56,260 bases of DNA, filler included, from Stramenopiles sp. TOSAG23-3 (GCA_900128585.1; 4 parts of 4 records of this genome joined end to end with filler, not necessarily neighbours in it); one strand, 5' to 3'. Shown: positions 1,366 to 45,350, counted from the first letter of the whole stretch. The notes: generated from the letters alone by a model not told the origin. Made by a program: numbers and translations.

Positions 1366-1900
1366 TAAAAAAACGAAAAAATGGCTGTTATCGAAGTAAT
1401 TTAAATAAGAACAGAATACTGGCTGTTATTTATGTTTTTAAATTATGTAATGAAAAGAAAAAAGTAGGTGTCAGTTGTCAGTTCAAATTTTACAAAAAGC
1501 AGTCGGTCTACTCTCCCTAAATTTGTAAAACAGCCATAATTTTGTGTTAATAAAAACAAAGTATATCAACTAGTAAAACCAAAAGAGCAAAGATAAGTTC
1601 GCAGTTCATGAAGGATGCAAACCTAGAATGTCTAAATCTACATTTCATTTCGCAGTTCATTAATTTTAATAATTACTTAAATAACAGCCAATTTTCCTGT
1701 ATAATAAAAACAAAAAATTGGCTAAAGTAATTAAAATTTACTAGTAACATACGTTATCTGGACAAAAACTAATTATATTGTAAAAAGGAAGGATTAATTG
1801 GAAATTTCAAGAGGTAAATTTAGTAGTCATATTTAACTTTAAGAATTTTTTGATTAATATATATATCGCAATTATATAACAGCCATTATTTTGTTTTTAC
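1366..1900. mobile_element. Cluster of degenerate copies of the TA-AAAACAAG...AATT inverted-repeat family
   Basis: Forward motif copies near 1366, 1408 and 1704; reverse copies near 1527, 1662-1700 and 1877-1899. Segment 1561-1700 is the reverse complement of about 8660-8800. Confidence 0.75.
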
Positions 1901-2051
1901 TCTTTTTCTCTTTTTTTAAACAGTTCTGTTGAAACAAATCGCAGTACATTGAAGGACGTAAAACTTTACTGGGCAAAAACAAACTTCATTGTACGGAAGG
2001 ATGAATCGGAAATTTCAAGAGGGTAATTTAAAGAATTCTTACTCTTGCCGC

Positions 2052-2873
2052 TTACATTCCGGTGGGAATGTCAGCAGTGCGTAAAATGGCTTGCATCGCA
2101 GCTGCCATGTTATGTTGAATCTCTGGGTCGGCCATATTTTTCATCATTTCAGCTTGCAACAGCACGTAGCCTTCTTCCCCTGGCATTCCGTAAGCCTCTG
2201 TAGTTTTCATTTGCAATGGAACAAGCGCCGCCATCAGGGCCGGCTGCTTCTTCTCGATATCCAATGGCTTTACGTTATTCTCCACCTCCCTCAAAAACTC
2301 AGGGTTTTGCATATTCTGACTAATTTCCTTTGCCATTGCCCTCAATTGGTCCACAGGAATACTCTTTTCCCCAAGGTCCACACCAAACGCATTATTCAAG
2401 AGTAAGGTCCAACTTTCGCTCGAAAGCTCCTGCAACTCCTTGATTTCGGGAGTATCTTCCATCCCTTGAAGTGCTTGGCCAATTTCCATTGTGTAGGTCT
2501 GAAGGCCAAGTTGGTCCCCTGTAAAACCGAATGGTACGATCACGTGCAAGCTTACACCAAAATAAACATCCAACATAGACTGCCAGCGGACAGAAAGAGC
2601 AACATCTTTCTGTTCGTTGATTTCCTGCAGACGCACCAGAGCGTTCGATGACTCCAGGTACATGTTGATCGTTTCGACAATGTTCAAGGCTTTGTCAACA
2701 TTTAGGTTAGGCGCCCCTCTCCACATTCCCGTTGTCTGGGCAGAAAACGACACTTTCTGCTGCATTCCATACCTCTCTGGTTGGAACCCTGAGACAGCAC
2801 CCTTCCTGGCAAGTTGGAAGCGACTGGCTACCACCCCGCGTGCGGCGGCAGTTCTGAACACTCTAGAGATCAT
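2052..2873 (-). CDS. Probable mitochondrial protein with two tandem C10 (C12orf57)-like helical domains
   Basis: 273-aa ORF. Arg/Ala/Ser-rich, acid-poor N-terminus (MISRVFRTAAARGVVASRF). Two internally similar halves (VIVPFGFTGDQLG / TTEAYGMPGEEG...DPEI) that recall the C10 family from memory. Confidence 0.6.
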   Translation of the reverse strand: MISRVFRTAAARGVVASRFQLARKGAVSGFQPERYGMQQKVSFSAQTTGMWRGAPNLNVDKALNIVETINMYLESSNALVRLQEINEQKDVALSVRWQSMLDVYFGVSLHVIVPFGFTGDQLGLQTYTMEIGQALQGMEDTPEIKELQELSSESWTLLLNNAFGVDLGEKSIPVDQLRAMAKEISQNMQNPEFLREVENNVKPLDIEKKQPALMAALVPLQMKTTEAYGMPGEEGYVLLQAEMMKNMADPEIQHNMAAAMQAILRTADIPTGM

Positions 2874-3845
2874 ATCGGTTTTAAAACGTTTATATGTAGG
2901 CTTGATTATGTTATTACTTTGTTATTGAAACGGTTTTTGTATTCTCACGAACACCTTGAAGTGTTTCTCACTTTTAAAAATGAATCGATATTATCAACAA
3001 TAGCATATAGTACATACATTCATTAAAATGTCTTGTTTGGTGATTTTCGCGTCACTTCATCTCTTTTGGTTCTTTTGGGTGGTTGGTATGGGGGCGCGAG
3101 GAGGAGGAGGAGGAGGAGCGCAATTTAAAACTGTGTGGTAATACATAATATTATTATTTTATTTTTTAATAGTATAGATCGATGATTTTATCATCTATTA
3201 ATAATGGACAATATCGTATAATACAATGCTTTTTTTATTTTGTTGAAGAAGGCCTCCTTGATTAATAAATCTAAGATTTTGCATTATTCATATTAGACTA
3301 TCTAGTATTATAATAACTATAACTGGTGGTAGACTAATAATATTTGTTAGTAGTCTATTATATATTTGTTATATTTATTATTTAATGAGTTTATAATAAT
3401 GTGGATTTGATTACACCAACCACACCACAACACCGTAGTAGATGAAGAATGAAGATGAGATACGACGACTAATATTATAACAACACAACTACCGTACGAA
3501 TAATAATAATAATAAAAAAAAATTATTAAAAAAATATAATAAAAAAATTATAATAATTATTTTTTATTTTATTATATTTAATATCATCAGTGATGATGAC
3601 ACCAAAAAGTGCGCAATGAAACAAAATCAGAAATCGGGTCTTCGGCGGGGTCGATATCGCACGAAAACGTCACTTTTCATAAGAAAGCATCAATTGAAAA
3701 GTATCTTTAGCGGACGTTAGAATTTCCCTGCAATGATTTGCCACTCGTAGTTGTCGACGCAGTGCTAGTTTCAACTGGACGGGGGTGTGCATATATAGTT
3801 GTCCGTCCGCCCTCTCCACCGAAAACGAGGGTAACTTTTAGAATT

Positions 3846-5351
3846 ATGACGCTGGCGTCAAAGCGGGGGAATAGGTGTCCATTTCTTCACAATGCGGTGT
3901 TGAAAAGTTTTCTCTGCTCTATTTTATTTTTTTACTTTTTTGCGCGTCAAAATAAAGAAAAGAGAGTGCGTCAACACCAGCAGGCTGTTGTTCGACTTGC
4001 GGCTCGGGCGATGCCTCCGAAGAAAGTCTCGGAACAAACAAAGGATACTCCCACCGAAAAACAGTTTTTGAGGGCCGAGGACAGCGATGAAGGCACCTCC
4101 GGTGACGTTCAGAAAACCAGGATAATAGCACAAACCACCAATGTTCTGAAAAAGTACGCAAGAGCTCCCGAAAAAACGCACAACGCGTTTTATTCTCGCC
4201 CGGAGAATGGAAAAGTCGCCCAGTACTTGTTGTCGAAAGGTTGGACGTCTGCGTCAGAGGCCGAAGACGCGTCCATCATTTGGTATCAAAAGAAGCAGAA
4301 TATACCGTGGGCGGATCTTTCAAGATGGCACCGAGCAAATCACTTCCGGAGAGAACGTGAACTAGGCCACAAAGGCCGCCTGCTGCATTATTTAAAGGAC
4401 TACGAGGCCTCTGAGAATGTCAAATTGCCATTTGTCCCAGAATCCTACCGGTCGTGGAATGAAAACGAGCGAAAAGCGTTTCTTGAAAAGGTATCGGACC
4501 CCAGCGATAACACGCCCTGGATAACTAAAATCCCTCACAAAGACGGGGGAAGGGGGATTTCTTTGATCGAACCAAAATCTCCGGAGCTGGAAACCCTAAA
4601 GTCGGTGTTGAAAAATTACGCAGTGGACGAATCCGAATTAATTATCCAAAAGTACGTTCAGAACATCATGCTGTACAAAGGCAGGAAGTTCGACTTGCGG
4701 ATATATTGGGTAATTGCGTCGTGGAACCCCTTGCTTGTGTATTACCACGATGGTACGTTGCGTGTGAGCATTGACAAGTACAACCAAGCGAACTATACGG
4801 ATTTAAAAGTTCATTTAACCAATGCTGTTATGCAAAAATCAAGTGTACATTACGAAAAAAAAGTGGAGAGCACGCGGAAAACGATGGGTGCGTTTGAGGA
4901 GTACCTAGCAGAGCAGGATGCTACCCCAAATGGAAACGTTCCCAAGAATTACGACGATGCGCTTCTGCGTGCAAAAAGTTTGAAAGGAACGTCCCCCTTG
5001 GATCACGTCAAATGCCGGATAAAGAAGGCGTTAAGAACAATAGTTAGAGCCACGGCCACGGCTATCTTAGACAAGCGAGACACGGAGCCTGAAAACGGAT
5101 TTTCACTTTTGGGCGCTGATTTTATGGTTGATAGACAGTTGAATATCTGGCTGACTGAAGTGCAATCAGGCCCTGGGTTGCCTCACAACACACAAGCTGT
5201 GGCCGGGGTAATGTCCGAGATGATACCGCAACTGATGAACATGGTACTGGAGATAAGGAAGAAACAGGAAGCGGGAATGCCTCTGTTGCCGCTAAAGTAT
5301 GTAGGGAATTTTGAGCCGGTCGTTGTCCCTGGATTTGAATTGTCTTGTTGA
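3846..5351 (+). CDS. Tubulin-tyrosine-ligase (TTL/TTLL)-family ATP-grasp ligase with N-terminal hydrophobic anchor
   Basis: Motifs WITKIPHKDGGRGISLI, IIQKYVQN, GRKFDLRIY, HLTN, FSLLGADFMVD and WLTEVQSGPGL. First in-frame ATG is 3846; the track start at 3738 is TTG. Confidence 0.85.
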   Translation: MTLASKRGNRCPFLHNAVLKSFLCSILFFYFFARQNKEKRVRQHQQAVVRLAARAMPPKKVSEQTKDTPTEKQFLRAEDSDEGTSGDVQKTRIIAQTTNVLKKYARAPEKTHNAFYSRPENGKVAQYLLSKGWTSASEAEDASIIWYQKKQNIPWADLSRWHRANHFRRERELGHKGRLLHYLKDYEASENVKLPFVPESYRSWNENERKAFLEKVSDPSDNTPWITKIPHKDGGRGISLIEPKSPELETLKSVLKNYAVDESELIIQKYVQNIMLYKGRKFDLRIYWVIASWNPLLVYYHDGTLRVSIDKYNQANYTDLKVHLTNAVMQKSSVHYEKKVESTRKTMGAFEEYLAEQDATPNGNVPKNYDDALLRAKSLKGTSPLDHVKCRIKKALRTIVRATATAILDKRDTEPENGFSLLGADFMVDRQLNIWLTEVQSGPGLPHNTQAVAGVMSEMIPQLMNMVLEIRKKQEAGMPLLPLKYVGNFEPVVVPGFELSC

Positions 5352-5844
5352 ATTTTTGAAGGAGGGAGGGTGCATCACCTTATTGGTGAAAATTGAAAAA
5401 TAGGGAAGTTTAAAAGAACGAACTAGAACGTCGTGTGTAAGATTCTAAAAAAAAAAAATTATATAGTAATGTTTTAAGACTCTCATTTGTGTAAGATTCT
5501 TAACGCAATTTTCCCATTTTTTTGTTGTATAAGGTATAAGCTAAAGTCTATCTTTGCAGAGACATGAAATTAGTGTGCGGAAATGGGTATTATATCTTTT
5601 ACTGTTTCAGAAACTTACGTTATTTATTTTTGAGGTATAATTTGTTTTTTTAAAGAAGAAGAATTTTAAATATCTTTTTTAGAAACAGTTTTAAACTGTT
5701 CCTGTACACTTTTTTTAAGATGAATATTTCGTACACGTATGTAGAGTCGACTATTAGTTTTTCAATTGGGCATTGCTCCCCTCCTGGGTTGACCTTTGTC
5801 CTTGGGTGCCCCTTTCTGATATCCGAAAGGCAGTCGGTGGATCT

Positions 5845-6597
5845 TTACAGGCCCCCCTTTTCCATTCCTACAGCACGTACTTGCTTGACAGTTTGGGGGG
5901 ATGAAGTTTTTGCAATTTGATTTGCAGTTTTCTCTCGCAACGGGGATTTGAAAGAAAGAGTTTTGTGCACCTTCCTTTTGTGAGCTGTTTCCTCAAAGAA
6001 GCAAGTGCGGCACACGGGTCGGTACATTTCTGCCCCACCAATAAGCTCGACACGAGTATCCGATATTGTGCGCTGGGTGAAAGATGCGCTGTGGTTTTTG
6101 CAGCTAGCGCAGACAGCTGTTAACTTGGTGACTGACTCTGCCATGGGGATAAGCTGACAGATTTTCCCGAAGGGTTTCCTCTGGAAGTCGCCGTCTAGCG
6201 CCGCAATAACTACTACTACGCCCATATTTGCAACGCGTTCAGCAAATTCTTCTAGATCATCGAAAAATTGACCCTCGTCTATCCCAACCACGTCGTACTG
6301 GCTGTCCGGAGTGATCTCGACGTCACTCAGCCTCACTACGTTCTGTGCTGGGAGGCTGTTTGACTTGTCGTGGGTCATGACCGTGTCGTCCGAGTACCTT
6401 TTGTCTTTTGCATATTTCAGCACCAGGCAACGCTTACCAGCATATTGGTAGCGCCTTACTCGCCTCAACAACTCCGTGCTCTTTCCACAGAACATAGGGC
6501 CAATGATCAGATCAATTCGCCCTCGCCGTTTTGACCGCCCGTCAATGGAACACGTACGGGCGAAAACTTTCGAAGGAGATTCCTCAATGTAATTCAT
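5845..6597 (-). CDS. TK1: Thymidine kinase (TK1 type)
   Basis: P-loop IIGPMFCGKSTELLRR, VVGIDEGQFF, AALDGDFQRKPF, and Zn lasso CASC...IGGAEMYRPVCRTC. First ATG at 6597. Confidence 0.95.
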   Translation of the reverse strand: MNYIEESPSKVFARTCSIDGRSKRRGRIDLIIGPMFCGKSTELLRRVRRYQYAGKRCLVLKYAKDKRYSDDTVMTHDKSNSLPAQNVVRLSDVEITPDSQYDVVGIDEGQFFDDLEEFAERVANMGVVVVIAALDGDFQRKPFGKICQLIPMAESVTKLTAVCASCKNHSASFTQRTISDTRVELIGGAEMYRPVCRTCFFEETAHKRKVHKTLSFKSPLREKTANQIAKTSSPQTVKQVRAVGMEKGGL

Positions 6598-7654
6598 ATT
6601 TGTCCACTTGTTTCGTTGTCCGGTATTCACGTGGGGTCTTTTTCAAGTGTTTAATGCCGAAAATTAAATACCTAGCGTATCGAAGCGCTTCTAAAAATTA
6701 ATTCTCTCCCTTCTTTTTCAGGATCACGTACGAGAGCTAAACGAAGAGCTATTCTAAAAAATAATATACAAAGTAAACATTTTTTAAACTGACTTGTGCC
6801 ATAATAGTGCAATAGTATTATATTTCTTTATTTTTTTATTGAAAAAAGTGCGCGTTATAAAAAAATACATCCACACAGTATAAAGAGAAGTTGAGCGGGA
6901 ATCTCTTTCAATGATATGAATACGTAAATAGACCGACAGACAGAACGACTACTACGAGGTACCTAACTTGGTAGTAATATAACTACGTAACTATGAGGAA
7001 GTGCGTTTGAATTTTTATATTATTATCTACCAAGAGTGGTATTAGCTACCTTGGTATTTATATATAGTCTTAAATATATATGGAATGTATTAAAATCCTT
7101 AGCTATAAACTTATAAAAATAATTAAATATCTTAAATTCTTCGCCTCGTACACAGTACCGGTATAATAGTAATAGCTGTTGTTGGTATTAATATTTATAT
7201 AATATTGTGGGGGGGGGGGGATTATATTAAATATAATAAATTATGCAGTCGATCTTTTTTCGATCTTCTCCTTCCTTCTTCAGTATTAAATACCGTAGGG
7301 TACCCGCCCGTAACCAACCGAAATTGGTACGGTTGTTCGGTACCGGTACCCAGGGAGGTATTCTAATATTTCAGTTAGAGATACACACCATCATCGAACT
7401 GGTATAAATTATTATAATTAAAAAAATAATACCGACCTACTTGGTACGACGACGATGGTTCGTTCATCGCGAGTTAATTAAATATAACGACTTTAAATAC
7501 TGCAGCAGCAATCATTTTTGAATGAAGTCCTCATCGTCGTCCGTCCAAATTATTATGCACGATTCATACAAATTTTAAAGGAAAGGAACAGCAATTAAAG
7601 GAACATCGCAACGTACATTTGTTGAGATTGCCGGCAGAACGCACTTGCTTGAAG

Positions 7655-8515
7655 ATGTCTGGAGCAGCTTGGCACGAGTCGTTCGCGGGAACGGTTGCTG
7701 GAATCAGCGGGCTGTCCATAATGTTTCCGCTTGATACAATCAAGTGCAGGCTGCAGACCCGACCCCAAGAGTACAACAACAAAGCGAGCCTGGTACTCCG
7801 GCGCATGGTGCAGAAAGAGGGTTTGCTGTCGCTATACAGAGGGTTGCTTTCCCCCGCTCTTGGCTATGGAGCAATCAACTCTACCGTCTTTGGAGTGCAA
7901 AGTGCTGGTTCAAAGATGTTGAAAGGGAATAATTCAGATAGAAAGCTTGCGCTCTGGGAAGAATTGGCTGTAGGGGCAAATGCTGGGCTGTTTAGCAGCT
8001 TCGTAAGATCGCCAATTGAGCGAGTGAAAACTGTTATGCAAATTCGAAATGCTAGTGTAACCCAGGCTCCTTATTCAAACAGCATTTCGTGTGCGTTCAA
8101 CTTGGTAAAGACTCACGGCGTTCGTGTGGGTTTGTACGAAGGCGTAGGTTCGACTATCGCCCGCGAAGTTCCGCAGTATTTGTTTTACTTCATTGTTTAC
8201 GACAATATTAAGACTGCGCTGAATCCCCATTTGGGCGACATTCCGAGCCAGGCCATTGCGGGCGGGGCAGCTGGTGCGTTCACGTGGCTGCCTCCTATAT
8301 TTTGCATTGACGTGGTAAAGACGAAACTCCAGAGTGCACCAGCAGGTACGTATACCGGGATGATCGACTGCTTTCAAAAGAGCTTGAAGCAAGAAGGGTG
8401 GCCTGTATTTTTTAGGGGGACTGGGGTTGCGCTCCTCAGAGCGTTTCCGTTGCATGGAACTATTTTTGTCGTGTTCGAGGGCGTTATGAAGTTCTTGCGT
8501 GATGGTGGGTACTAG
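7655..8515 (+). CDS. Mitochondrial carrier (SLC25; carnitine/acylcarnitine or basic amino acid-like)
   Basis: Three carrier repeats PLDTIKCRLQ, PIERVKTVMQ and CIDVVKTKLQ, plus LYRGLLSP and LRAFP motifs. First ATG at 7655. Confidence 0.9.
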   Translation: MSGAAWHESFAGTVAGISGLSIMFPLDTIKCRLQTRPQEYNNKASLVLRRMVQKEGLLSLYRGLLSPALGYGAINSTVFGVQSAGSKMLKGNNSDRKLALWEELAVGANAGLFSSFVRSPIERVKTVMQIRNASVTQAPYSNSISCAFNLVKTHGVRVGLYEGVGSTIAREVPQYLFYFIVYDNIKTALNPHLGDIPSQAIAGGAAGAFTWLPPIFCIDVVKTKLQSAPAGTYTGMIDCFQKSLKQEGWPVFFRGTGVALLRAFPLHGTIFVVFEGVMKFLRDGGY

Positions 8516-8657
8516 AACAGGGGCTGGGGAGATAGTGTGTGTGTACTCTATTGGTTACGCATGGCATTTGAAAAATCAAGGAACAATTTTTGGTATTTTT
8601 AATTTTTTAGAAAATATTATACAGTTTATTAACTCGTGTAAGATCTTAGGGTTTTTT

Positions 8658-8972
8658 TAAAAACAAGAAAATTGGCTGTTATTTAAGTAATTAAAATTAG
8701 TGTACTGCGAACTGAAATCTAGATTTAGACATTCTAGGTTTGCACTCCTTCATGAACTGCGAACTTATCTTTGCTCTTTTGGTCTTACTAATCGATATAC
8801 CCTTGTCCCTTAGTCTTGACTATCATTCTCTCAGATGTACTCCATTTATGATCTGAATCAGTGGGTGGATTAGCACTGCTAAATTAAAAGGAGCAGATTC
8901 ATTTTCGTGGTAATACATGTGAGGAAGATAAATTTTAATTACTTAAATAACAGGGCCAATTTTTTGTTTTTA
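8658..8972. mobile_element. 315-bp MITE-like element with ~41-bp terminal inverted repeats
   Basis: Left end 8658-8698 is TAAAAACAAGAAAATTGGCTGTTATTTAAGTAATTAAAATT. Right end 8931-8972 is its near-perfect reverse complement. Both ends are TA-bounded, and internal parts recur near 1561-1700, 33680-33710 and 38365-38515. Confidence 0.75.
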
Positions 8973-9064
8973 TTTAATTTTAACATTTAAAAAGGAAAAA
9001 TAGAGGACAAAATTTGCTCCTCCAGCTCCCTAACTTCCTGTACTCAGTGCCACCCCATAGCTTT

Positions 9065-10483
9065 TTACTGCTCGTACACTTTTCCAATCGCTTTAACCTC
9101 AAAGCCAATTTCAATCAGCTTTTGGTGGTCGAGGATATTCCTTCCATCAAAAATGAATGCCGGCTTCGTCATGGCGTCATAAATTTTTTGGTAGTCGTAC
9201 TCTTTGAAACAGTCCCACTCGGTCATAATTGCAATAGCGTGGGCTCCCTTGACAGCATCAAGGTAGTTGTCTTCCAGTTTGATCAAGTTCGACAACCCGG
9301 GCAAGGTGTCCTCGGTCAAATTAAGCGTGTATTTGAACTCCATGAACATTTCTTCCTTTGTGACTTGTGGATCGTACACAGATAATTGAGCGCGCTCTTC
9401 CAACAAATACTTGGAAACATAAGCGGCGGCAGTTTCCCTTGTATCACCCGTATCCTTTTTAAAGGCAAAACCGAACACAGCAATTTTTTTGCCAGACACG
9501 CTGTTGAACATGGTGCGAATCATCTTTTGTGCAAACCTCTTCTTTTGCCAATCGTTCATCGTTACAACGCTCCGCCAGTAATCAGCAACTTCTTGCAGCC
9601 CGAAACTTTCGCACAAATATACCAAATTCAAGATGTCCTTTTGGAAGCATGATCCTCCAAATCCAACACTGGATCTCAAAAATGCCTTACCAATGCGACG
9701 GTCGGTCCCGACCGCTCTTGCTACTTCGTCAACATCCGCCTTTGTTGCCTCGCACAAAGCACTGATAGAGTTTATGCTGCTAATCCGTTGTGCTAGGTAT
9801 GCGTTGGCAACGAGTTTGGACAGTTCGGAGGACCACACGTTTGTTGTGATGATGTTTTCGCGAGGAATCCACTGAGCATATACTTCGGCAAGCAATCGCA
9901 TTGCACGCTGGCCGTCTTCGTCTTGGTCTCCACCAATAAGGACGCGGGATGGGTCTTCCAAGTCCCTGATCGCAGTTCCTTCTGCTAGAAACTCCGGGTT
10001 CGACAGGACTTGGAACTTGCAAAACTCAGAGTTGGCTGCCAAGACCCGCTTCATGGCAGATGCCGTCTGCACTGGAACAGTACTTTTCTCGACGATGATT
10101 TTGGAGTGCTTGGACACTTTGGCAATGGTCCTTGCGCAAAGTTCGATGTTTTTAACGTTCGATGCACTGCCTGCCCCGATACCGTACGTCTTAGTTGGCG
10201 TGTTCACCGCAACAAAAATTACGTCGGCAGCGGCAATTTCTGGCTCAATGTCTGTGCTGAAAAATAGATTTTTGCCCCTGCATTTTTCAACAACGTCTTT
10301 CAGTCCCGGCTCATAGATAGGCAAGCTGTCGCTGTTCCATGCATCAATGCGAGGCTGGCTAAGGTCCACGACGCATACACGCACAGTCGGGCAGTGAGAG
10401 GCAAGGACTGCCATAGTTGGACCGCCAACGTACCCGGCGCCGATGCAGCAAATTTTTAGGCCGTCAAGAGTTAAGCTTGTCAT
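9065..10483 (-). CDS. UGDH: UDP-glucose 6-dehydrogenase
   Basis: [32 protein letters not shown], catalytic [22 protein letters not shown] and FDGRNILD. Homology begins at ATG 10483; an upstream in-frame ATG exists at 10591. Confidence 0.97.
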
Positions 10484-11431
10484 GATCGTTTGTGAATAGT
10501 TTGATTGCTGTTTTTCGATAACTGGTTTTTTTGAGTTTCTTTGATGTTTCTGAGATTGTGCGTATCTGCTTATTCGTAAACGAGAAAACATTTTTCCATA
10601 GACTACACTGTACAGAAACTAATGAATCCATTTCACTTGGACAAAGTGTGAGAGGAGGAGCAGCATTTTTTTCTTCTTCCTATGCTCTTGTCTTGTGTTT
10701 TGTTTGAACCAGATCCGTTGTTGCTTCTTTTTGCTTCGATGATGTGGTATTTTTGGCGAAGAAGAAAGATAAGTTGTTTGTTAATTAAGGGCATATATTC
10801 CTGTGATGTAATAATTTGTACATTATAATTATTTTATTGTGATTGTATGTATATATATTTACCTTAATAAATGATGTAATATCGTCTTCTCATCCGCCCA
10901 TTCATTGTTTGATCTTCATACTATAAAATATTGGTCTACACGGTGGTACAGGTAACCGGTATAATACAGGTATAATATTAATAATAGCAAGTCGTCTTCA
11001 TTGATTGCACATCGCACATCGCCCCCATTCTTCTTCTTCTTCCTTCTTCTCTCCTTTTTTTTGTATAGTGACGACTAGTCCTATTATAGCCTAATTGTTT
11101 ACGAGGAGTACACAATACGAGGAGTCCTCGGAGGAAGGGAAGGACACCACACCTCCTCAACAACAAAAACTCAGCTGGTTGTTCGAAGTTGTTCTTTGTA
11201 TTGTGTACCTCAGTAGTAGGTGCCATATTACGAGTACATAGAATATCAAGCTATTTAACACGATTTATTACTAGACTATCTAGACCCGTAGTTATTAATT
11301 TTAATAAGAACTCAATCCCCTATGTACGCAGGCGTCGAGAAGTTATTGTACTATTATTCAATTATAATAATATTTTTTCACACAGAAGATCGAGGGAAGA
11401 AGAGAATTCGACTTTCTCTCTTCTTTTTTTC

Positions 11432-31541: not shown

Positions 31542-31579
31542 GTGTAGAACGAGAGACATAAGATATATTAAATTCATTT

Positions 31580-31635: not shown

Positions 31636-31744
31636 ATTTATTTCTTTAGAAATATCATTACGTGGGTGAACTTTCAAACCTTTTGACCGCTTACGCACAC
31701 AAATTCTCCTGTATGTTCTTGGTGCAATGAGGGAGTTTTCTTAT

Positions 31745-32407: not shown

Positions 32408-32457
32408 TGGCTGTTATACTACGAAGCCAAACGGTTGTTCACGGCGGGTGAGGCTAA

Positions 32458-32964: not shown

Positions 32965-33454
32965 GCAGACTGTAACTCGATATCATCCCTCCGCAAAATC
33001 TCCTATTGGAGATCTTCGTAACTTAGTCAAACAAACAAATACTTAGATATTGATTCGCCCCAACTTACATGTTCAACTCCTCTGGTGTTCAATTTTCATT
33101 ACCGGTACAGTAGTAAAATAATTGAAGAGACGCGCGGTCCTGTACGAGGAAGAACAACCGGTTGGTGTAAAAATTTTAATAATAATATAATAATACTAAA
33201 GAGCATGAAGACATTTTTTATTTTTTTTTAATAATAATAATAATTTCAAAAAGAGAAGAAGAATAGAAGGAGGAGAGAGATGATTATTAGACTACTAGGA
33301 CTTATAGCTATTTTATCCGTACAGGTACCAGGTACGGTACACGTACGAACCGTTATCCGGGTATTAAAATGGTATTATTTATGTATTAATATTAACTGGC
33401 CACATCATCCGCCTAAAAAAATATTTTTTATTATTTATTATTATATTATTTTCA

Positions 33455-33712
33455 TAAAAAAAACAAAAAATTGGCTGTGATGATATTTATAATATTATTT
33501 AAGATTTAAGTTTTAAATAAGAAAATTGGCTGTTATCTTCTAATTAAAAGATTTAAGTAAGGTACCGGTACCTGTACCAAGGTAGTTAAAATTTTATCGT
33601 CTTCACAAAAACAAAAAATTGGCTGTTGTTATTTAAAAGTAAAATTAAAACAAGAAAATTGGCTGTTATTAAAATAATATATTCCTCATGTACCGCGAAA
33701 ATGAATGTCCTT
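33455..33712. repeat. Cluster of four or more same-orientation partial copies of the inverted-repeat motif
   Basis: AAATTGGCTGT cores near 33468, 33523, 33616 and 33656. CCTCATGTACCGCGAAAATGAAT resembles the reverse complement of 8897-8925. Confidence 0.75.
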
Positions 33713-33937
33713 CATTATGAATATTGCAAATTTATCTCTGTTCCTTAGATTTTACTAAAACAAAATACCCTTGTCACATTATTCATAAATAATAATAGAC
33801 GACCTAGTTAGTTGACGCCGTCGTCTGTTGATAATACACACAGATGGTTGTTGCTACATTATTTTAAACTATTATTTTCAAAGAAGAAGAAGAGAAGAAA
33901 AAATACTATTTAATAATTCGACCCGCAGTTCGTCGCT

Positions 33938-35177: not shown

Positions 35178-35308
35178 TAATAGTTGTCGTCTATTAGTAG
35201 ATGAGTGGAATGAGAAGAGAAGAGAAGAGAAGAGAAGAAGAAAAATAGTTGTCGTCTAATGTGAGAAGAGAAGAGAAGAGAAGAGAAGAGAGGAGAAGAG
35301 AAGAGAAG
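35178..35308. repeat. (AGAAG)n tracts with duplicated ATAGTTGTCGTCTA
   Basis: Directly visible. The 14-mer occurs twice, each time followed by pentamer runs. Confidence 0.8.
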
Positions 35309-35754
35309 CGGGAAAAAAGGAGGAGGAAGAAGCAAGCGTGCGGTGGTGCGGTGACCAAGTGTTGAAATTTTATAAAAGAATAATGGCTGTCAGTCAGTGG
35401 AATCATTTTGTGTTATAATTAGGGTTCATAAATTAATATTTAAGGTTAATATAATTTAATTAGTAATTATGGTTTTGTTTTTATTATATGATATTAATTA
35501 GTAAATATTATAATTTTTACTATTTGTAATATATTCATTCCTTAATATAATTCATTGTGTGGGGCAACACAAGGCCATCGATTATTTTTCCTCAACTACG
35601 ATCGTAGTCCTACGGTACTTCCTTGTGCAGATGAACTTGTACTCTAAATATAATAATAAAAAAAAAAGAAGAAGATGATATTTATTTTTTCAGTAAAACA
35701 AAGGGCACACAGGGACGATAGACGACTAAGTAAATTAGCCACCACCAACAAAAA

Positions 35755-35808
35755 AAGAAGAAGAAGAAAAAGAAGAAGAAGAAGAAGAAGAAGAAGAAGA
35801 AGAAGAAG
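35755..35808. repeat. (GAA)n microsatellite
   Basis: Directly visible trinucleotide run. Confidence 0.9.
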
Positions 35809-36410
35809 ATAGAACTTTTTTTTTTTTAAATGCAAAAAACAAACGGAAGAGCGGTAGTTCATGAGAAAGAAGTAATTGAACTCTTCAATGACTGATGGTT
35901 TCCAATTCTCGCAGGGTCTATCAACAGGCCAACTAAATATGATCTAAAACAGAGTGCCTAACTCCACACAGATCTGGTGCAATTCTGTAACAATTACTTG
36001 TGTGAGAGTCCGTGTGTTGTATTTGTAAGTTCTTCTTATACTTTATCAATTGTGTGCTCTCTCCTCTCTCTCTCTCTCTCTCTGCGTGTGTGTGTCTCGC
36101 TCTCGCCCTCGGACCGCAACGAGAAATAAGGGCAGCTTAATAGTTGGTGTATGTTTATTCTTGTAATTTACACTCGTTCCCGCTGCCAAGATCAACAGCT
36201 TTATTGCTAGGGACTGAACATCCCGGCGAGAATACAGAGTTTTGGGCCTTCTCTTTGCCGCAAAACCAAAAAACTCGGTACAAATATTGTGATGTCCGCT
36301 TCCTCACTTCTTCGTTTCACTTCCTCTACAAACTGTCGCTAATTAACAACCTTTGTTCATTTGTAAAGTTGCTAAAAGATTAGCTTACTTCCCTGAAATA
36401 TTACTTGAAA

Positions 36411-36833
36411 ATGAGATTGTTCGTCTATGTGCTGTTGCTGGCTTTAGCCTCTATAGGCTTTGCGGACCAGTTTACGACGAACCACCGGCATGCACACGCC
36501 AACCATATTTTGGTCAAGACCAAACAGGAGTGTGAAGATCTTAAATCAAAAATTGACAACGAAAACGCTGATTTTGAACTTTTGGCAAAGGAGTACTCCA
36601 CTTGTCCGAGCGGTAAGCGCGGGGGTGATTTGGGGACATTTGGTCCTGGGCAGATGGTTGCACCATTTGATAAAGTAGTTTTTAGTGCAGAAGTTGGCAA
36701 AGTGCACGGGTGTGTGAGGACCCAGTTTGGGTACCATCTCATCTGGATCCGAAAGCGCGACGATTCCGGTGATGGGCTGGCGGCAGTTGGTGGGCATGCC
36801 CATTTAGCAGAGGAAGATTTAAAAGAAATCTAG
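36411..36833 (+). CDS. Parvulin-type (PpiC-like) peptidyl-prolyl isomerase with signal peptide
   Basis: HILVKT, FELLAKEYSTCPSGKRGGDLGTFGPGQMVAPFD and TQFGYHLI. Signal peptide MRLFVYVLLLALASIGFA from ATG 36411. Confidence 0.92.
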   Translation: MRLFVYVLLLALASIGFADQFTTNHRHAHANHILVKTKQECEDLKSKIDNENADFELLAKEYSTCPSGKRGGDLGTFGPGQMVAPFDKVVFSAEVGKVHGCVRTQFGYHLIWIRKRDDSGDGLAAVGGHAHLAEEDLKEI

Positions 36834-37274
36834 GCTGTTGTCTTTTACAAAAAGATGTATTGTTTGGTTTGCCTTGAGTGGTATGTAACATTTATTAGTC
36901 AACTTGCGGCATTTAGAGGACTTCCAAACCAATATATGTCAAACATTAAATTTAGGATAAAAGATTAATGTTAGAATTTAAGTTAAGTTAAATATAAAAA
37001 CAAGAAAATTGGCTGTTATTTAAGTAATTAAATTTAGCTTCGTCGTACCCTAATCCTCTTAAAAAAAAGTGGGGGGGGCTTCTTTCCTCGTTTATATTTT
37101 TATCGAGGATAATCTTCTTTTACTTTTTAATAACATTACACAGCATATAATTTCAGCACATTTGTGGTTTCCCTTCTAATTAATTTCAGCACGCATCAAC
37201 ATATATATGTATTGACTAGTTTAAATATTTAAATAAAACTTGAATAGATATAATATACAATATCGAAACTTCTT

Positions 37275-37535
37275 TTAATAAATAGTGTCTTCTAATGTTC
37301 CCGTTATTTGGTCACACGTCCCTTTATTGCACGTACATTTGTCAACTGTGTTATCCGTTTGCCCATCTTCGTATTCGCAACGTTTTATGTCCCAACTGTT
37401 GCCAGTAACTTTTGTTAACAGCGAGTCGGAACACGAGTGTGAATCCCACAGGCAGTATTTTCCAGTAGTTTCGCTGCAAAACATACCATTACATTGGCAA
37501 GATAGCAAATTAACATCTTGTCCTTTAATGTATCT
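37275..37535 (-). pseudogene. Fragment of a Cys-rich repeat (surface-protein-like) gene
   Basis: Minus-strand frame NLLSCQCNGMFCSETTGKYCLWDSHSC...CEYEDGQTDNTVDKCTCNKGTCDQITG shows two N...CxC....C...TG units. It has no credible start of its own, and the second unit is cut off. Confidence 0.5.
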
Positions 37536-38256
37536 ACATGCAGACACAGAGCCCGGTACCTTGTTTGTGCCTGGACATTGCAACACGTTGAAGGAGGCGG
37601 TGGAGAGGGTGCACGGGGACGATGGGTTGACCACCATTGTGGTGGGGAAAGGGGAACACCAGATCGACGGTGATTGTTTGGAGCCTGCTTCCGTCATGAA
37701 CATTGTGGGTGATCCGGGGGTGCCGAAAAGTGAGATTGTGGTCGTGGGTGGGATTAGGTTCAAGTACGGGATTCCAGGGAATTGCCATCTGCAACACCTG
37801 ACACTGCACCAAGCCAAGGAGCATGGAGTGTATGGGTATTCCTCTTTTACGATGGAAGATGTCCTTGTGGAACAGTGTTGTGAGTGTGGTGTGGTTGCGG
37901 AGGGTACTGGCGTCGTCGGAAGATGTACCAACGTGGAAGTGCGCCAATGCGGAGCGACTGGAGTGGTTGCATTCAATGATGCCTCCATCACATTGATCGG
38001 TGCCAAGACGACGGTGCACCACAATTGTACAAAAGGAGGGAGTCATGATTACGGGTTGCAAGTCTGGGGTGCCTCTTCCACCATTCAACTGGTCTCCCCC
38101 TTGATCAAAGAGGAAGTCTCCCTCGACAACGGTGGGGGTGGCAATTGGGGGGCGGAACGTGGTGCTGACATCAATCAAATCAATAAAACAAGAAAATTGG
38201 CTGTTATTTCAGTAATTAAAATCAATATGAAAAACATTATCAAAAAAAAAATTTAA
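37528..38256 (+). pseudogene. Right-handed beta-helix (pectin-lyase-like fold) gene or gene fragment
   Basis: GC-rich island: TLFVPGHCNTLKEAV...TTIVVGKGEH followed by helix coils (VLVEQCCECGVVA, VEVRQCGATGVVA, TVHHNC). The frame reads straight into the repeat motif at 38184. Confidence 0.6.
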
Positions 38257-38848
38257 AACCCTAATTTAGTTTATCTAAATAGTAAGTAAATGTTTCACAA
38301 ATTAGAAATTATTTTTATGATATGCAAGAAAAATTTTTGAGGAAGAGTTGATTATGGGTCTGTGGAAGCAGTGTTAATCCATCTACTGATTCAGATCATA
38401 AATTGAGTACATCTGAGAATGATATTTAAGTTCGCAGTTCATGAAGGAATGCAAGCCTAGAATATCTAAATCTAGATCTCAGTTCGCAGTACATTAATTT
38501 TAATTACTTAAATAAAAACAAGAAAATTGGCTGTTATTTTACGATCAAACTCAATACCGATCATTATTTCATTGAGCAGTACCACAGACAACGAGCCCCT
38601 TTAAAACATTTATGCCGCTAATTTTTCTTGATATCATATAATTTGTTTTTCATATTTAAGTAATTAAATTTAGCTTCCAATAAATAGCAGCCAATTTTCT
38701 TGTTTTAAAATTACTATAAAAAATAACAGCCAAATTTTTCTTGTTTTTAAAAGTTATCATAAGATACTTTGTTTTTTCATATACTTCGTATTTATGAGTA
38801 ATAACAAATTCGTATGATAACATACGACACTAGTTTTCTTTTCTGCAA

Positions 38849-41499
38849 TTATGCTTGGCTATTCTTCTTCCCGTCCGCATACAGTTGTCCGTACAGTTCA
38901 CCGGTGCTGTTAAACATACGCAACTTCCACATTTTTATGTTTATCTCATGCGCCATAGCGGCTCTGACAATTCCGCGGTGCCATTTCGGTAGCGATAAGG
39001 AGTGTTTCATACTAGCTCCTTCCAAATACATTAACTCACTTGGTCTCTCTAGGCCACCACCCCTACTTTCGTCAACTCCTTCTCTGCTTTGATAGGCATC
39101 TATGAGAAAAGCAACCAGAACATTCATAACGCAGACAACGCAGACCAAATTAAAAGAAATGAAATACACAACAGCCCAACCTGACGTGGCAGCAACTGCC
39201 CCCTCCATTACTATCGGCCAATTGTTGACTACCATCTGTTCAAAAAGAGTAACTAGAGCCCGTGGAAAGGTGTCAAAATTGTTGGCGTAGTAATCGAGGC
39301 GGTGGTACGAACTTTGGAAAAAATCCATGTTGCCTTCATTGCTCTTCCCCGACATACGGTTGCCGAATAATTCCATGCCAAGAATTGCGTACATATAAAT
39401 GACAACTAACAAAATCATAAAAAAGCGAAATACTGCAGGTAAAACGGTAACGATTGTGCTGATAATCCGGTTGTACTCTGGGAACGATTGCAGTATACGG
39501 AGCACTCGAACCATACGCAGCATCAACGCGCAGAAAGCAAGATAGTTTAGGTTCGATGAGTGTGACGTATCCGCAGCATCAACAATGTATACGGTCAAGC
39601 CAATTGTGATGGTAACGAAATCAATGATATTGAACCAACTATTGCGGAAAAATTTCTTTATTCCCATGCCAAGACATTTCATTAACACTTCGACAATAAA
39701 TAAAAACAGCATTACGGTTGCGACAACATCAAATCCATCTTTTAAGGGCGCGCTCAAGCTCAATTCTTCCTCCATTACCAGTGTGACTACGACGGCGGTA
39801 TTTAGTAGAATCAGGAAGTCAAAAACTCGATCCCACCACTTTGAAGAGATTATATCCATTATTCTGGAGCGAACATAGAAACGCTTTGCCAACAGCTTTT
39901 GAAAACGAGTTTCAGCTGAAATGTTACTCTCTGGTCTGGAAACTTTCTGCACCTTGATCATGGCGTATTTCATAGCCTGTCGGAACACCTCCAGCGTCAT
40001 TTCCAATTCTGGTCGTTCGTCTTTCGAACGTGCTCGGCCTTTGCTTTCGAAGCCATCATCACAAACCCACCAATATATAGCGTGGGCAACATCTTGGTGC
40101 ATTGTTTTGTTCATAGACATGAGCATGTCCGTCCATTCGTTTATCGAAATGGCCGTGAAAATGCGGCGAGCAGTGCTATCTTCGGCGCCAATTATGGCCG
40201 GACTGGACAAGTCCCTCGCGCGACAAAGCAAGGAATGGGCGTATGCAAATGCGTTCTCCCTTGCGGCAAAAAAGGACCTGTATTTGTGTTTTGTTTGGTT
40301 TGAAAAATGTGTGTAAATTACAGCCAACACCAGACTCATCAAAAAGTACAAGCCAACCATTAAGTAAACAACGAAAAAAAGTGAATAGTATTGTTGACAA
40401 CGGTAAACTGGCATCATAATGTCCGGAAAGTTCGCAGTTGTTAACAAAATGAACATTTGCAGCAAAGAACTGCCTAGGGTGGCAAAATAATCTTCGCAAA
40501 TTCCGTTGTATGTTGAGCAGTATCTATGCCCTTCAAGCGTCCTATTCATTAGATCTCTCTTAACTTCAGGATGTTTTGAAAGAATATTTGCCGTATTGTT
40601 GGTTTTCATCAAGGAACCAGCAAACGTGCAAGAACCAGAGGCTGGACCAGTCATGCCGCGGAACATCACATGCCCCAGCACGCCGAAAAAAGTAACATGC
40701 AGTGCTACCAAAACTAAAACGTTCAGTATTTTGGGGGCAGACTTCACAATCGCAGATGCAATCTTTTTAACGTTGCGCAGTCTTTCGACGACTATTAATG
40801 GTCTTAACACCCGCGAAACGTGCCAAAGGCTTGGAAACAATATACATAGAGCGGTGTTAAAAACCATCATGACTATCAAAGCAATCCTAAGCCTTATGGA
40901 GGTGACCGATAAAGCGTCTTTTTTGAAACGGTACAATAGCACAATGTCAATAAAGAAGATAAAAATGCATACCAGGTCTAAGCACAGCATAAGAGTTTGC
41001 ATGCTGCTGTTTGTTGCTCCAGAAGTGACAGTTGAGGTTTCTTCCCAAATTGCAAGAGCCATATTGAGAAGCGCTGTGGCCAGGTAAAAGGTTCCTGCGA
41101 AAAAAAGAAAAGATCGTTAGCACATAGCACGGGTGCGGTGGAAGGTGGGAAACGTATTGATCTGTACTTACGCCAAAGCGAGCTATGGTAAAACTTCCCT
41201 ATTCGAAGTCCCCATAGATCGGGTAGTGGGCCTTCTGAGTGCTGCCGGCCGTGAACGCCTCCGTTCGCTACGAAACCAGCGTAGGATATGAGACGATAAC
41301 GCTTCTCGCCTTTGGCGTGTTTTTCGCCTACGAAAGATACAGGTTCCTCGAACGGGTTTAATGTACTACGTTGCAACTTATTTATCTTTACAGGCGATGT
41401 ATTAAGTTGCAAATTTCCTACTGATAATGGCAGTCCCTCAGGTTCCGAACTAGTAATTCTGAGCTCTAAAGAAGGCGGCCGCACATTTTTCTGAGGCAT
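38849..41499 (-). CDS. TPC: Two-pore channel (TPC family), two exons
   Basis: Two 6-TM repeats with pore motifs LLTTANFPDIMMP and EQMVVNNW, and S4 segments SRVLRPL and LRMVRVLRIL. Exons 41499-41172 and 41094-38849 join in frame (HSSLW-R-TFYLATALLNMALAIWE). Confidence 0.9.
41095..41171 (-). other. 77-nt spliceosomal intron in TPC
   Basis: Minus strand reads GTAAGT...TGCTAAC...TCTTTTCTTTTTTTCGCAG. Removing it fuses the two ORF-track frames. Confidence 0.9.
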
Positions 41500-42775: not shown

Positions 42776-43132
42776 CGCGACCATCATACTACTACTGTAA
42801 ATCTCATTTGTTGAATTTTATTTTTCCTAATGGTAATTACCTGTCTAAAAAAGAAAAGATGATGGTGGTGGTTTCATTCGCAAAACTTTTTTTATTTTTT
42901 GGTCGGTCAAATAATACGTACTTGTAATACATTAGAAGGGATGTACAAGTTTGGGTTTAATTTCATTACCGTCGTTAACTTTCCCGATATAAGTTCTATA
43001 GATTCTGGTAAAGCTGTTTATATTTTGCAAAACAAATACTCAAACAGCTTATTGTAGACACTCTATAGACCGACAAAAAGCGTTTACTGCTTCGTCAGGA
43101 TTCAAGTACTGACTCGAGTGTCATTGAGAACA

Positions 43133-45109
43133 ATGGAAACAGTTCAGGGGAAATCAGGACATCCCGTTCACGTCATTCATGATTCCACCTTATCGTGTGA
43201 GCAATTATCAGAACATTTTGAAGAAAACCGAGCGACCTGTGCAATCATTGGTAAAGAGGCCAGCGCGATCATAACAGAGAAGGACATAGTTCGACTTGTG
43301 GCGGATCCAAACTCAAGGCACCCGTCAGAGGTTACCATTGGTGACATTGCAACCCCCCGGCCAGTCTGCGTTGATGCTGATTCAAAACCTTCAGACATAC
43401 TTACTATAATGCACAATGCTCATTTTCGCCACGTACCATTACAAAATGCTGTTACAAAGGAAATCGAAGACGTCACGGACATTGTCACAGTAGCAAATCA
43501 GCTGTTTAACGCGAATTCTAAGAATGAATCCATGGGCGCTGCCTTGTCGCGCCTTATGACAAACATCTTCTCTGTGTTTGGAAGCGATGACAACACAAAC
43601 GCTGGGGACGATGAATGGACAAAAACGCTGTTTTCGAACGACAAATCGGCTAGGAATGATAGTGACTCGTATAAAATTCACAGGAACATGAGCGTTCAAG
43701 ACGCTGCTCAAAAAATGATTCGTCAGAACACCAGTGCTTTGCTTGTGGTCGATCAAAGTTCTGGAAAACTCCTAGGCATATTTACAGAGTCCGACATCGT
43801 AAGGAAGGTTGTATCTCGCGGCAGCAACACGGTCTCCACAAAGGTGAGAAGCGTGATGACAAAAAATCCTATAACCTTCTCTTCGCGAGCTGTAAAGCCT
43901 GTGGAAGCACTGCACATGATGCTTCATAGAGGATTTAGACATTTGCCAATAGAAGACCCAGACACAAAGAAAGTGTGCGGTCTCCTAAACGTTTTGATGC
44001 TAACGTTTCATGCCCTGGGGTCCCGTTTGCGGGATGTAGAACAGTCCGATGCTGAAAACATTGTTTCTCGTGGGTTATCATCTTATGAAGCACGAAAATC
44101 TGCAATTTTTCATCAAATACATACCGAAGTGACCTCAACGGAGAGTCTGAAAATGCCGGCGAACGTAGGTGACTCGAGCACTACAGCGCCGATTAAGAAT
44201 GACGTAGCTGCGAAAGAGGAAGAGGAAGAGAAAGGTACTGCTTCTGCGGCTGAAAAGAAGTTTATGTCCTCTATGATATTGGCCCATAATCACCGGGGAA
44301 AAGGCGATGGTATGATTCGAGGGTCCCAATTTAATAAAGCCAAGCAAGCCTTTTCAAGAGCGTTACTTCACGTGGAAAGAGCAAGTCAGCGATGTCCAGA
44401 AAGTGACACTGACAAGTACACCAGCGTGGTGGCAAAGGCAAGGGCAGATTTATACTTTAAACGGGCTGAGATTTTGTCCATATTAGGAGAGTTTTCCGAC
44501 GCTTTGCAAGATTACAAACACGTACAGAGTATTGCCGAATCACAGAGCAATTCCACCAGTAGTGCTTTCAGCAGTTGGCTAAAAGAACTAGGAATTAAAC
44601 CGCAGCTATTCTTTGGCTCTGTGCTCGACACGCTGTTTGAATTAGATAGGTTTGAAGAAGCAGTGCAGAATTTGAAAATCTTCCAGGGATATTCTTGTTC
44701 AATAGAACCGCTGGTGGCTAAATTTGTGGCACATTCGTCCCGCTTTGTAAAGTGTGGCAACGAATTGCTTGCTAGCAAGGAAAAAGAAGACGCACGTACA
44801 CAGTTCGTTAGTGCCAAACGTATCGTTAAAGCTATGCTGGACTCTTCCCTTAGTGCTGTTCGGGAAGCTTCAGAGATAAAATTTTCATTGGCCCAAATTG
44901 CTAGCTTGATTGAGAGTACAAAAGCCGTTGATAATGCTCGAGATAAAGAAAATAACGGAAATGTGACTGGTAAAGTGGTGGCTTGTGGCGGGGAAAAAAA
45001 GAAAATTGCTAATATGGAAGACATCAAATTGTTGGGGCAACTGATGATGAATTTTTCTGCCCCAAATGATAATGCTGAGGAGAACTGCACCGAATCTGTT
45101 GAAGTGTGA
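43133..45109 (+). CDS. Four-CBS-domain protein with C-terminal TPR-like region
   Basis: Two Bateman modules (AIITEKDIVR...MHNAHFRHVP; GIFTESDIVRKVV...VMTKNP...MLHRGFRHLP), then YFKRAEILSILGEFSDALQDY. First ATG at 43133. Confidence 0.85.
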   Translation: METVQGKSGHPVHVIHDSTLSCEQLSEHFEENRATCAIIGKEASAIITEKDIVRLVADPNSRHPSEVTIGDIATPRPVCVDADSKPSDILTIMHNAHFRHVPLQNAVTKEIEDVTDIVTVANQLFNANSKNESMGAALSRLMTNIFSVFGSDDNTNAGDDEWTKTLFSNDKSARNDSDSYKIHRNMSVQDAAQKMIRQNTSALLVVDQSSGKLLGIFTESDIVRKVVSRGSNTVSTKVRSVMTKNPITFSSRAVKPVEALHMMLHRGFRHLPIEDPDTKKVCGLLNVLMLTFHALGSRLRDVEQSDAENIVSRGLSSYEARKSAIFHQIHTEVTSTESLKMPANVGDSSTTAPIKNDVAAKEEEEEKGTASAAEKKFMSSMILAHNHRGKGDGMIRGSQFNKAKQAFSRALLHVERASQRCPESDTDKYTSVVAKARADLYFKRAEILSILGEFSDALQDYKHVQSIAESQSNSTSSAFSSWLKELGIKPQLFFGSVLDTLFELDRFEEAVQNLKIFQGYSCSIEPLVAKFVAHSSRFVKCGNELLASKEKEDARTQFVSAKRIVKAMLDSSLSAVREASEIKFSLAQIASLIESTKAVDNARDKENNGNVTGKVVACGGEKKKIANMEDIKLLGQLMMNFSAPNDNAEENCTESVEV

Positions 45110-45350
45110 GAATATAGAACTTAAACTTTAATTCGCTTTAAATCGCACAACGCATTTTGATTATATTTATAAGTACTTAAAATTTAGGAGCAGAGCCAAT
45201 TTTTTGTTTTTAATTTAGACGTGGGAGTAATTCGTCAGTGTGTGGGGGGATAGTTTTTGTACATCACTGATCCGTACGTAACATATGTCGTGCGTAAGGA
45301 AAAACAAATTATATAGTATGCTTCGTACGTAAGATACCACCCATTCATGT

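Follow-up and report, generated by a model that had tools for sequence, protein, structure and literature searches.

The DNA analysed here is a window of 56,260 bases from Stramenopiles sp. TOSAG23-3, which consists of four contigs joined by linkers (N44-TTAATTAATTAA-N44, at 25934-26033, 51951-52050, and 54106-54205), and the subject of this analysis is a motif of 41 nucleotides (nt) that is dispersed in the spacers behind its genes. We propose that the reverse complement of this 41-mer is very probably the 3' tail (the final ~41 bases) of non-LTR (long terminal repeat) retroposons of one family, which resemble long interspersed nuclear elements (LINEs) and belong to an uncultured marine stramenopile. 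On the sequence evidence, the motif matches in the window are best explained as ~20 truncated copies of this family. An earlier reading of this DNA, referred to below as the original prediction, had taken the motif to terminate an uncharacterised mobile element, one that targets terminator regions or survives in them, and this is supported by the target-site duplications and by the concentration of copies past stop codons that are described below. The details are different from those it implied: the motif is not a terminal inverted repeat (TIR) of a DNA transposon, and the strand that it described as TA-initiated is the antisense strand, the motif being the reverse complement of a 3' terminus.

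The 41-mer occurs exactly once in the window (8658-8698) and once with a single mismatch (36995-37035); at up to three mismatches these two are the only matches in the window, and shuffled sequences gave none. The 10-mer core, TGGCTGTTAT, at up to one mismatch has 21 matches in the window compared to 3.7 +/- 2.0 in shuffles, and 21 was reached by 0 of 100 shuffles. A profile built from 138 motif copies and searched with nhmmer gave 17 window matches at the cut-off of E<=1, one of which (32393-32418, E 0.45) looks like a chance match. The count of about 20 in the original prediction thus holds for partial and degenerate copies and does not hold for whole ones. All the sites that it listed hold copies (1367-1900, 8658, 8931-8972, 31579, 33458-33791, 36995, 38183-38749, and 45166-45212, the last of which is degenerate), and the motif is on two contigs.

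Scanning of metagenome contigs with a 20-mer of the motif yielded at least 132 loci (376 kb) with 143 unique copies, and all locus counts given here are counts among the matches listed. In the 143 unique copies conservation starts sharply 5 nt ahead of the seed and decays over ~40 nt on the other side. Behind the motif there is either one of several alternative bodies, which we have named alpha, beta, gamma, and delta, or unique sequence, and a set of 222 copies comprises 49 with the alpha, 24 with the beta, and 7 with the gamma body, the remaining 142 being of other kinds or solo. Coverage along a natural 395-nt copy falls from 118 to 99, 60, 41, and finally 17 with growing distance from the tail, and the longest copies are either ended by contig ends or are themselves truncated.

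The sequence that touches the sharp end is repeated exactly, over at least 9 nt, 12-650 nt downstream in 54 of 160 copies, compared to 15 of 160 and 12 of 160 in the controls. From 46 candidates, repeats inside the motif, two duplicate loci, and four long-range 8-mers were removed, which left 32 copies. These are 24-496 nt long, nearly all of different length, and flanked by direct repeats of 8-16 nt (8 nt in nine copies, 9 nt in five, 10 nt in six, 11 nt in five, 12 nt in three, and longer in four). Since the repeat directly abuts the terminal bases of the tail in 28 of the 32, poly(A) is lacking. When the empty sites are reconstructed, 18 of 32 have T as the base past the duplication, with A or T mostly filling the next three positions; the copies start with TTAAAAC (10) or TAAAAAC (7). 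Insertion is not into one specific target sequence; the targets vary and have only a weak preference for T(A/T)(A/T)A. Because each copy has a fixed end, a variable other end, and a duplication of its own, the most likely explanation is that the copies are products of target-primed reverse transcription, and it is impossible to obtain them by cut-and-paste. Reverse transcription itself is what we infer here, because the gene for reverse transcriptase (RT) was not found.

Copies have also gone into or beside other copies. In locus L021 there are two consecutive insertions at one site with the duplicated target between them, and in L029 an older, inverted copy has received a later one within its tail, accompanied by a duplication of the target, and it is because of this nested insertion that L029 appears to have inverted repeats of ~55 nt. 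Two nested mini-insertions, one in L030 (18 nt) and one in L045 (12 nt), duplicate 5-7 nt of known repeat sequence each and retain the outer tail end alone. Since copies beginning with TAAAA recreate a nick site at their edge and have another within the tail, tandem arrays and frequent nesting would follow, and we read the tandem arrays as the probable outcome of insertion that recurred at a single nick site.

A reading frame runs through part of the alpha and beta bodies. In 14 of 19 aligned copies (77-100% DNA identity) the strand opposite to that of the motif has one frame without stops; stops abound in the two other frames, and the open frame terminates ~110 nt (beta) or ~170 nt (alpha) ahead of the tail. 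As this frame lies opposite the motif and ends ahead of the terminus, the reverse complement of the motif is a 3' tail, preceded by an open reading frame (ORF) and a 3' untranslated region (3'UTR). The frame extends into 21 longer database proteins. A search of 1.84 billion representative proteins gave 147 clusters, nearly all of them short fragments, as expected for a repeat that sits in fragmented assemblies. The distant relatives P0246, P0244, and P0286 (747 aa, 88 members) prolong the protein upstream; they have a stretch rich in Cys and His and a PD...D...K-like region, with the end of which the family frame of the window aligns, and a downstream part that is weakly like Ulp1 protease (1euv, E 0.13). 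The CCHC and PD-(D/E)xK-like patterns in P0286, P0246, and L057 are a likeness by eye only, without a Pfam or PDB profile match. For the nuclease-like region the PDB profile search gave no match, Foldseek a best E of 1.2, and VIA-align a best Z of 5.6 on a helix only. PDB sequence search and the ESM Atlas gave nothing usable on the class of the protein, and the AlphaFold model of P0246, built on a 20-row alignment, has a predicted local distance difference test score (pLDDT) of 58. Copies of ~1.3 kb and longer are present in L057 and L029; the original prediction had suggested looking for long copies that enclose a transposase, recombinase, or RT ORF, and no transposase, integrase, or RT was found in the ORFs searched in the loci.

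One fixed end, a variable length, and tandem arrays, along with the cysteine-protease-like parts in the protein of a relative, would also suit a rolling-circle element of the Helitron or Helentron kind, with the motif as the end that the copies share and variation at the other end. Cysteine-protease-like domains do occur in some Helitrons. Helitrons, however, are not known to make target duplications, and here repeats of at least 9 nt exceed both controls more than threefold. In addition, Rep and helicase were not found in the ORFs of the loci and the window, no hairpin was predicted near the end, and the ends are, by eye, unlike known Helitron termini. It is extremely unlikely that the motif is the end of such an element.

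Several findings weigh against a retroposon. A search of the 108 + 60 ORFs from loci and window, which for RT means a search space of ~430 kb of short contigs only, gave neither an RVT domain nor a known endonuclease. The element's own protein fragments have no Pfam match, RT is absent from P0286, which is the longest relative, and no RT, endonuclease, or other Pfam domain is recognisable across ~750 residues of the family protein. Folding of the tail RNA gave no stem-loop (minimum free energy 0 kcal/mol, z +0.8 to +1.7 compared to shuffles). No pair of empty and filled alleles was seen, and, as to orthologous empty sites, no locus has the gene flanks of the window or of another assembly, overlapping pieces aside. 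The duplications, being mostly 8-12 nt, could reflect a constant length of ~9-10 bp that chance matches have obscured, which would fit a Mutator-like DNA transposon. Lastly, L046 is a 191-nt unit with inverted ends and a duplication of 9-10 nt around the inverted pair, and there are some further units with inverted ends, namely, L001 of 391 nt and L029 of 349 nt with inverted ends of ~55 nt, and 8658-8972 in the window, a 315-bp unit with 41-nt inverted ends and arms 93% alike that resembles a miniature inverted-repeat transposable element (MITE).

The duplication lengths and the inverted-end units favour the hypothesis with which we began, that the motif is the TIR of a non-autonomous cut-and-paste transposon, that is a MITE, possibly Mutator-like with duplications of ~9-10 bp, and that the lone motifs are its decayed remnants. 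This hypothesis was dropped because of the geometry of the motif pairs, the control on pair duplications, and the single-ended duplications. Among 103 neighbouring motif pairs within 2 kb, 65 are direct (mostly 0-100 nt apart), 25 inward, and 13 outward, and the gaps of the inward pairs, from -10 to 487 nt, have no preferred size. The flanking repeats of 43 inward pairs are no longer than those of shuffled pairings, the only exception being L046/L131. On the other hand, 32 copies with a single motif end, of 32 different lengths, carry their own duplications, and this a cut-and-paste mechanism is unable to bring about. The inverted repeat of L029 is, as described above, a copy inserted in an older inverted copy. 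As for the unit at 8658-8972, we read it as probably two separate truncated copies, one alpha and one gamma-like, that stand face to face, since there is no shared flanking duplication above control and the interior of the gamma-like copy is unlike alpha. The original prediction had noted that no transposase is present in the window, and neither a transposase nor an RT domain was found in its 31 + 9 ORFs. Beside the loci there are 159 distinct ORFs of at least 150 aa, which are ordinary host genes (MCM7, dynein, kinesin, Sec24, RNA polymerase II subunit 2), and among them no RT, transposase, integrase, or multi-copy ORF family was found. A MITE is thus a very unlikely source of the motif.

We propose the following mechanism for the retroposon family. 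The RNA of the element would terminate in the tail, without poly(A), and a nuclease encoded by the element would nick the target, preferably directly ahead of T(A/T)(A/T)A. The freed DNA end would then prime reverse transcription at the extreme end of the RNA. Copying would mostly abort early, leaving the tail alone or the tail and part of the 3'UTR (24-500 nt), and a staggered second cut would give rise to the flanking direct duplication of ~8-12 nt (up to 16). A new copy, which starts with TAAAA, would restore a good nick site both at the outer edge and within the tail, and from these recreated sites would come direct tandem arrays, with the duplication as spacer, and copies nested in older copies that mimic inverted terminal repeats. 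The alpha, beta, gamma, and delta subfamilies, with different bodies and a common tail, would mean that it is the tail sequence that the enzyme recognises.

Three other observations concern the element and its protein. P0175 has a truncated fatty-acid-elongase-type domain (FAE1, E 5e-80) fused to a piece of the element frame, which suggests an insertion into or beside a host gene that was read through by the gene caller. L023 has, at 4659-6020 (+), an open frame of 454 aa that is cut by the end of the locus and that shares 28% identity with the protease-like portion of P0286; a second Cys...His pattern, OTU-like by eye, is present in it too, and it has no Pfam or PDB match. Five extra bases (TGATA, TCATA, or GACTA) are present at an identical position of the tail in L028, L029, L033, L046, and L065. 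They resemble the TA-plus-3-nt excision footprints of mariner-type elements and may be such footprints; alternatively, they may be subfamily variants.

The copies in the window are given below. The strand is that of the 41-mer motif and the sense strand of the element is the opposite one.

1367-1404 and 1405-1447 (+): a pair of degenerate tail copies side by side (nhmmer E 0.046 and 0.019), 155-235 nt past the stop of a TPR gene (1212).
1561-1705 (-): 145-nt truncated alpha copy, tail and part of the 3'UTR (nhmmer E 2.4e-06), 84% identical to 8620-8800 and 86-92% to copies in L015, L076, L091, and L074.
1706-1740 (+): short tail copy with an internal deletion, B part with 4 mismatches, end to end with the outer end of the 1561-1705 copy.
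1861-1900 (-): degenerate tail copy (nhmmer E 0.18), core 10-mer exact at 1876-1885, ~150 nt past the stop (2052, - strand) of a C10-domain gene.
5446-5487 (+): 42-nt copy of a second tail family, 95 nt past the stop (5351) of the tubulin-tyrosine ligase (TTL) gene, flanked by the 12-nt direct repeat TGTGTAAGATTC (5434-5445 and 5488-5499).
8658-8880 (+): 223-nt alpha copy, exact 41-mer tail and 3'UTR, extending into the end of the element reading frame (- strand), 143 nt past the mitochondrial-carrier stop (8515), 85-96% identical to copies in 12 loci.
8887-8972 (-): ~86-nt gamma-like copy that faces the alpha copy (nhmmer E 6.6e-4).
31579-31635 (+): short copy, tail and first bases of a gamma-type 3'UTR, B part exact at 31604-31622 (nhmmer E 0.64), 38 nt past the stop (31541) of a 1823-aa ORF.
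33458-~33500, 33512-33547, 33606-33644, and 33645-~33791 (+): array of four direct copies past the stop of the epimerase gene (33938, - strand); the array (33458-33791) has 65% identity to 8660-8822, the copy at 33512-33547 is flanked by the 11-nt AAGATTTAAGT (33501-33511 and 33548-33558, duplication offset 0), and the copy at 33645-~33791 is 147 nt and gamma/alpha-like.
36995-37062 (+): ~68-nt beta copy, 41-mer with 1 mismatch and beta-type 3'UTR (nhmmer E 1.6e-12), 162 nt past the parvulin stop (36833); the beta continuation is common to L019, L022, L040, and L055.
38183-38218 (+): 36-nt tail copy (nhmmer E 1.8e-10) with AAATCA at 38177-38182 and 38219-38224, a weak duplication of 6 nt.
38367-38512 (-): alpha copy, tail interrupted in its B part by a later insertion, 90-94% identical to 8679-8880.
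38513-38619 (+): delta copy, tail then a different body, inside the 38367-38512 copy (nhmmer E 6.2e-09); the stretch 38541-38619 matches L030, L102, and L130 at 99-100% identity.
38709-38749 and 38653-38708 (-): two direct tail copies (nhmmer E 7.5e-05 and 2.3e-06), 100-196 nt past the stop of an ion-channel gene (38849, - strand).
45166-45212 (-): degenerate composite, A part on - (45192-45212, 4 mismatches) and a B-like piece on + (45166-45184, 3 mismatches), below detection by the profile at E<=1.

The A part at 38490-38540 seems inverted because a later copy was inserted inside the tail of the 38367-38512 copy, and the same nesting with a duplicated target as at 38367-38619 is also seen in L029. 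Around the neighbouring 36-nt tail copy, at 37275-38256, long ORFs on opposite strands overlap (323 aa on + and 249 aa on -), and neither has a Pfam match. The 323-aa frame crosses the copy at 38183-38218, and either of the two may be the real gene.

The position of the copies relative to genes is not random. In the manual ORF map of the window, motif clusters lie in the convergent spacers 1212-2052, 8515-9065, 31541-31745, 38256-38849, and 45109-45351 in the tandem spacer 32964-33938 (past the epimerase stop), and in the spacer 36833-37285 (past the parvulin stop), and the spacers typed divergent have no motif cluster. This confirms the earlier claim that the clusters are past stop codons, mostly between convergent genes, and absent from divergent spacers. 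An automatic map, which uses only ORFs of at least 150 aa, types one motif-bearing spacer of the window as divergent; we think that the spacer in question is 36833-37285 and that its type is wrong because this map leaves out the 142-aa parvulin ORF. A count by spacer type gave 40 convergent, 12 tandem, and 1 divergent for the 53 seeded spacers that have an ORF on either side, whereas random orientation would give 25, 50, and 25%. In tandem spacers 18 of 19 copies are closer to the upstream stop (median relative position 0.21), and this stop is a median of 122 nt away from the copies overall. The density of TAAAA sites across the three spacer types is 16.2, 12.0, and 10.5 per kb and the A+T content is 0.66-0.68, and because these are similar, availability of sites alone does not explain the position bias. 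Orientation relative to genes is biased weakly at most: the sense strand of the element agrees with that of the genes in 11 of 19 copies in tandem spacers, and in convergent spacers the gene that is upstream in motif orientation is the nearer gene in 40 of 61.

A bias of this strength towards 3' ends, which target availability alone leaves unexplained, together with the presence of the repeat in many RNA-library contigs, raises the question whether the motif serves the host at the 3' ends of its genes, for example in termination, in polyadenylation, or as a site to which a protein binds, and was selected and not transposed. Of the sequencing runs that match the region, 14 DNA runs contain at least half of its words and six RNA-library runs match part of it; four of the latter were compared with 300-10700, all as assembled contigs. 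The summed depth of RNA contigs over 8628-8974 is 41-431, compared to 0-20 in neighbouring bins, which means only that those libraries have many contigs with the repeat. The contigs end at 1913, 1954, and 1972 for the C10 gene, at 9028, 9031, and 8958 for the UDP-glucose dehydrogenase (UGDH) gene, and at 5433 and 5446 for the TTL gene, but since repeats break assemblies these ends are unusable as transcript ends. No poly(A) evidence at the motif is listed in the four RNA-contig sets, which as assembled contigs are unable to show transcript ends. The copies with target duplications and with pieces of reading frame and 3'UTR, however, must have arrived by insertion, their orientation is mixed, and many convergent spacers of the window are without the motif or have a different tail family only. 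A host signal is therefore very improbable indeed, and the recombination or 3'-processing site that the original prediction offered as another possibility finds no support, the copies being in both orientations relative to genes. For the retroposon family, persistence of copies almost exclusively in the first few hundred bases past stops would be due to either selection in a compact genome, against insertion into promoters, or targeting. That the family is an undescribed retroelement lineage aimed at the termination zones of protein-coding genes, and not merely tolerated there, is unlikely; on that reading, thousands of tail copies behind stops could have been co-opted into the 3'UTRs or terminators of a very compact genome.

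The second tail family, which is short, has the same A-run and ACAA at its start and then diverges. In the window it is present at 5446-5487, 5630-5661 (-), 38620-38652 (-), and 45294-45330, and it occupies convergent spacers without the 41-mer, for example 5351-5845. There are 55 copies in the window and the loci, with a sharp outer edge and with repeats of at least 9 nt at 9 of the 55. In RNA run X20, a poly(A) library, the contig of the TTL gene ends at 5446, the first base of the insertion, with 14 unaligned letters, and it could be from an allele without the 42-nt insertion.

The genes of the window are eukaryotic, mostly with few introns, and include those for TTL, thymidine kinase, a mitochondrial carrier, UGDH, and a two-repeat ion channel; the closest named relatives of the UGDH (Nannochloropsis, Triparma, Spumella, and diatoms) are ~70% identical to it. 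A dispersed repeat of ~500 bp is present as two inverted copies, 72-84% identical, at 21237-21752 and 50293-50885, and is also matched by L002, L064, and L076. Microsatellites and direct repeats at 35212-35835, 54206-54390, 25763-25929, and 24993-25152 comprise long GAA/GAGAA microsatellites, a 73-bp tandem repeat (3 units, 99-100% identical), and a 96-bp-spaced direct repeat that adjoins an N gap.

A limited literature search gave no description of these repeats, which does not establish that they are undescribed, and the accessible part of a report on single-cell genomics of uncultured stramenopiles (PMC5778133) makes no mention of transposons, repeats, or retroelements. What was an unexplained signal behind genes becomes an ordinary yet instructive case. 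In the compact genome of an uncultured marine grazer the visible traces of retroposons are nearly all tails of 24-300 nt past stops, and annotators could take such tails for MITEs, terminators, or 3'UTR motifs. The common tail is a handle by which the active element may be located, and the 40:12:1 bias towards convergent spacers, at equal A+T and similar density of nick sites, allows selection to be tested against targeting.

Among known systems, the family is most usefully compared with LINEs that recognise their tail. Some LINE enzymes stringently recognise a specific 3' tail instead of poly(A), and such tails are known to form stem-loops. The likeness consists of a precise 3' end, variable 5' truncation, target duplications, a coding strand that runs into the 3'UTR and tail, several subfamilies that have only the tail in common, and tandem insertions. 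The family differs from these LINEs in that neither an RT nor an endonuclease domain was recovered, its copies can be as short as 24 nt, and the tail is without a predicted stem-loop. With R2, NeSL, and Utopia it shares the lack of poly(A) and, in P0286, the Cys/His stretch, the PD...D...K-like region, and the weak Ulp1 likeness, and this layout of Cys/His, nuclease-like, and Ulp1-like parts resembles that of R2/NeSL/Utopia-type LINEs, an assignment that could not be confirmed. Unlike them, it does not insert site-specifically beyond the weak T(A/T)(A/T)A preference. LINEs with a restriction-like endonuclease are described as having a precise boundary at the 3' end and a variable one at the 5' end, family-specific duplications of 0-20 bp, and occasional tandem insertion; their nuclease is of the PD-(D/E)xK type, and an Ulp1-like protease is among the domains of Utopia (PMC4640811). 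The copies are like MITEs in being short, A+T-rich, non-coding in appearance, and adjacent to genes, with inverted ends in some units, and they are unlike MITEs in having no characteristic length, mostly direct pairs, and single-ended copies with their own duplications. Short interspersed nuclear elements (SINEs) that share a tail with a partner LINE likewise have one tail common to several bodies, but ARAGORN found no tRNA gene in the window, and no Rfam family was found in the window and 7 loci. Since the alpha and beta bodies consist of the end of a coding frame and a 3'UTR, they are themselves cut-down copies of the coding element and not SINEs, as judged from copies none of which shows the true 5' end of a full-length element. 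Our verdict is that this retroposon family is a further member of an already known kind of element.

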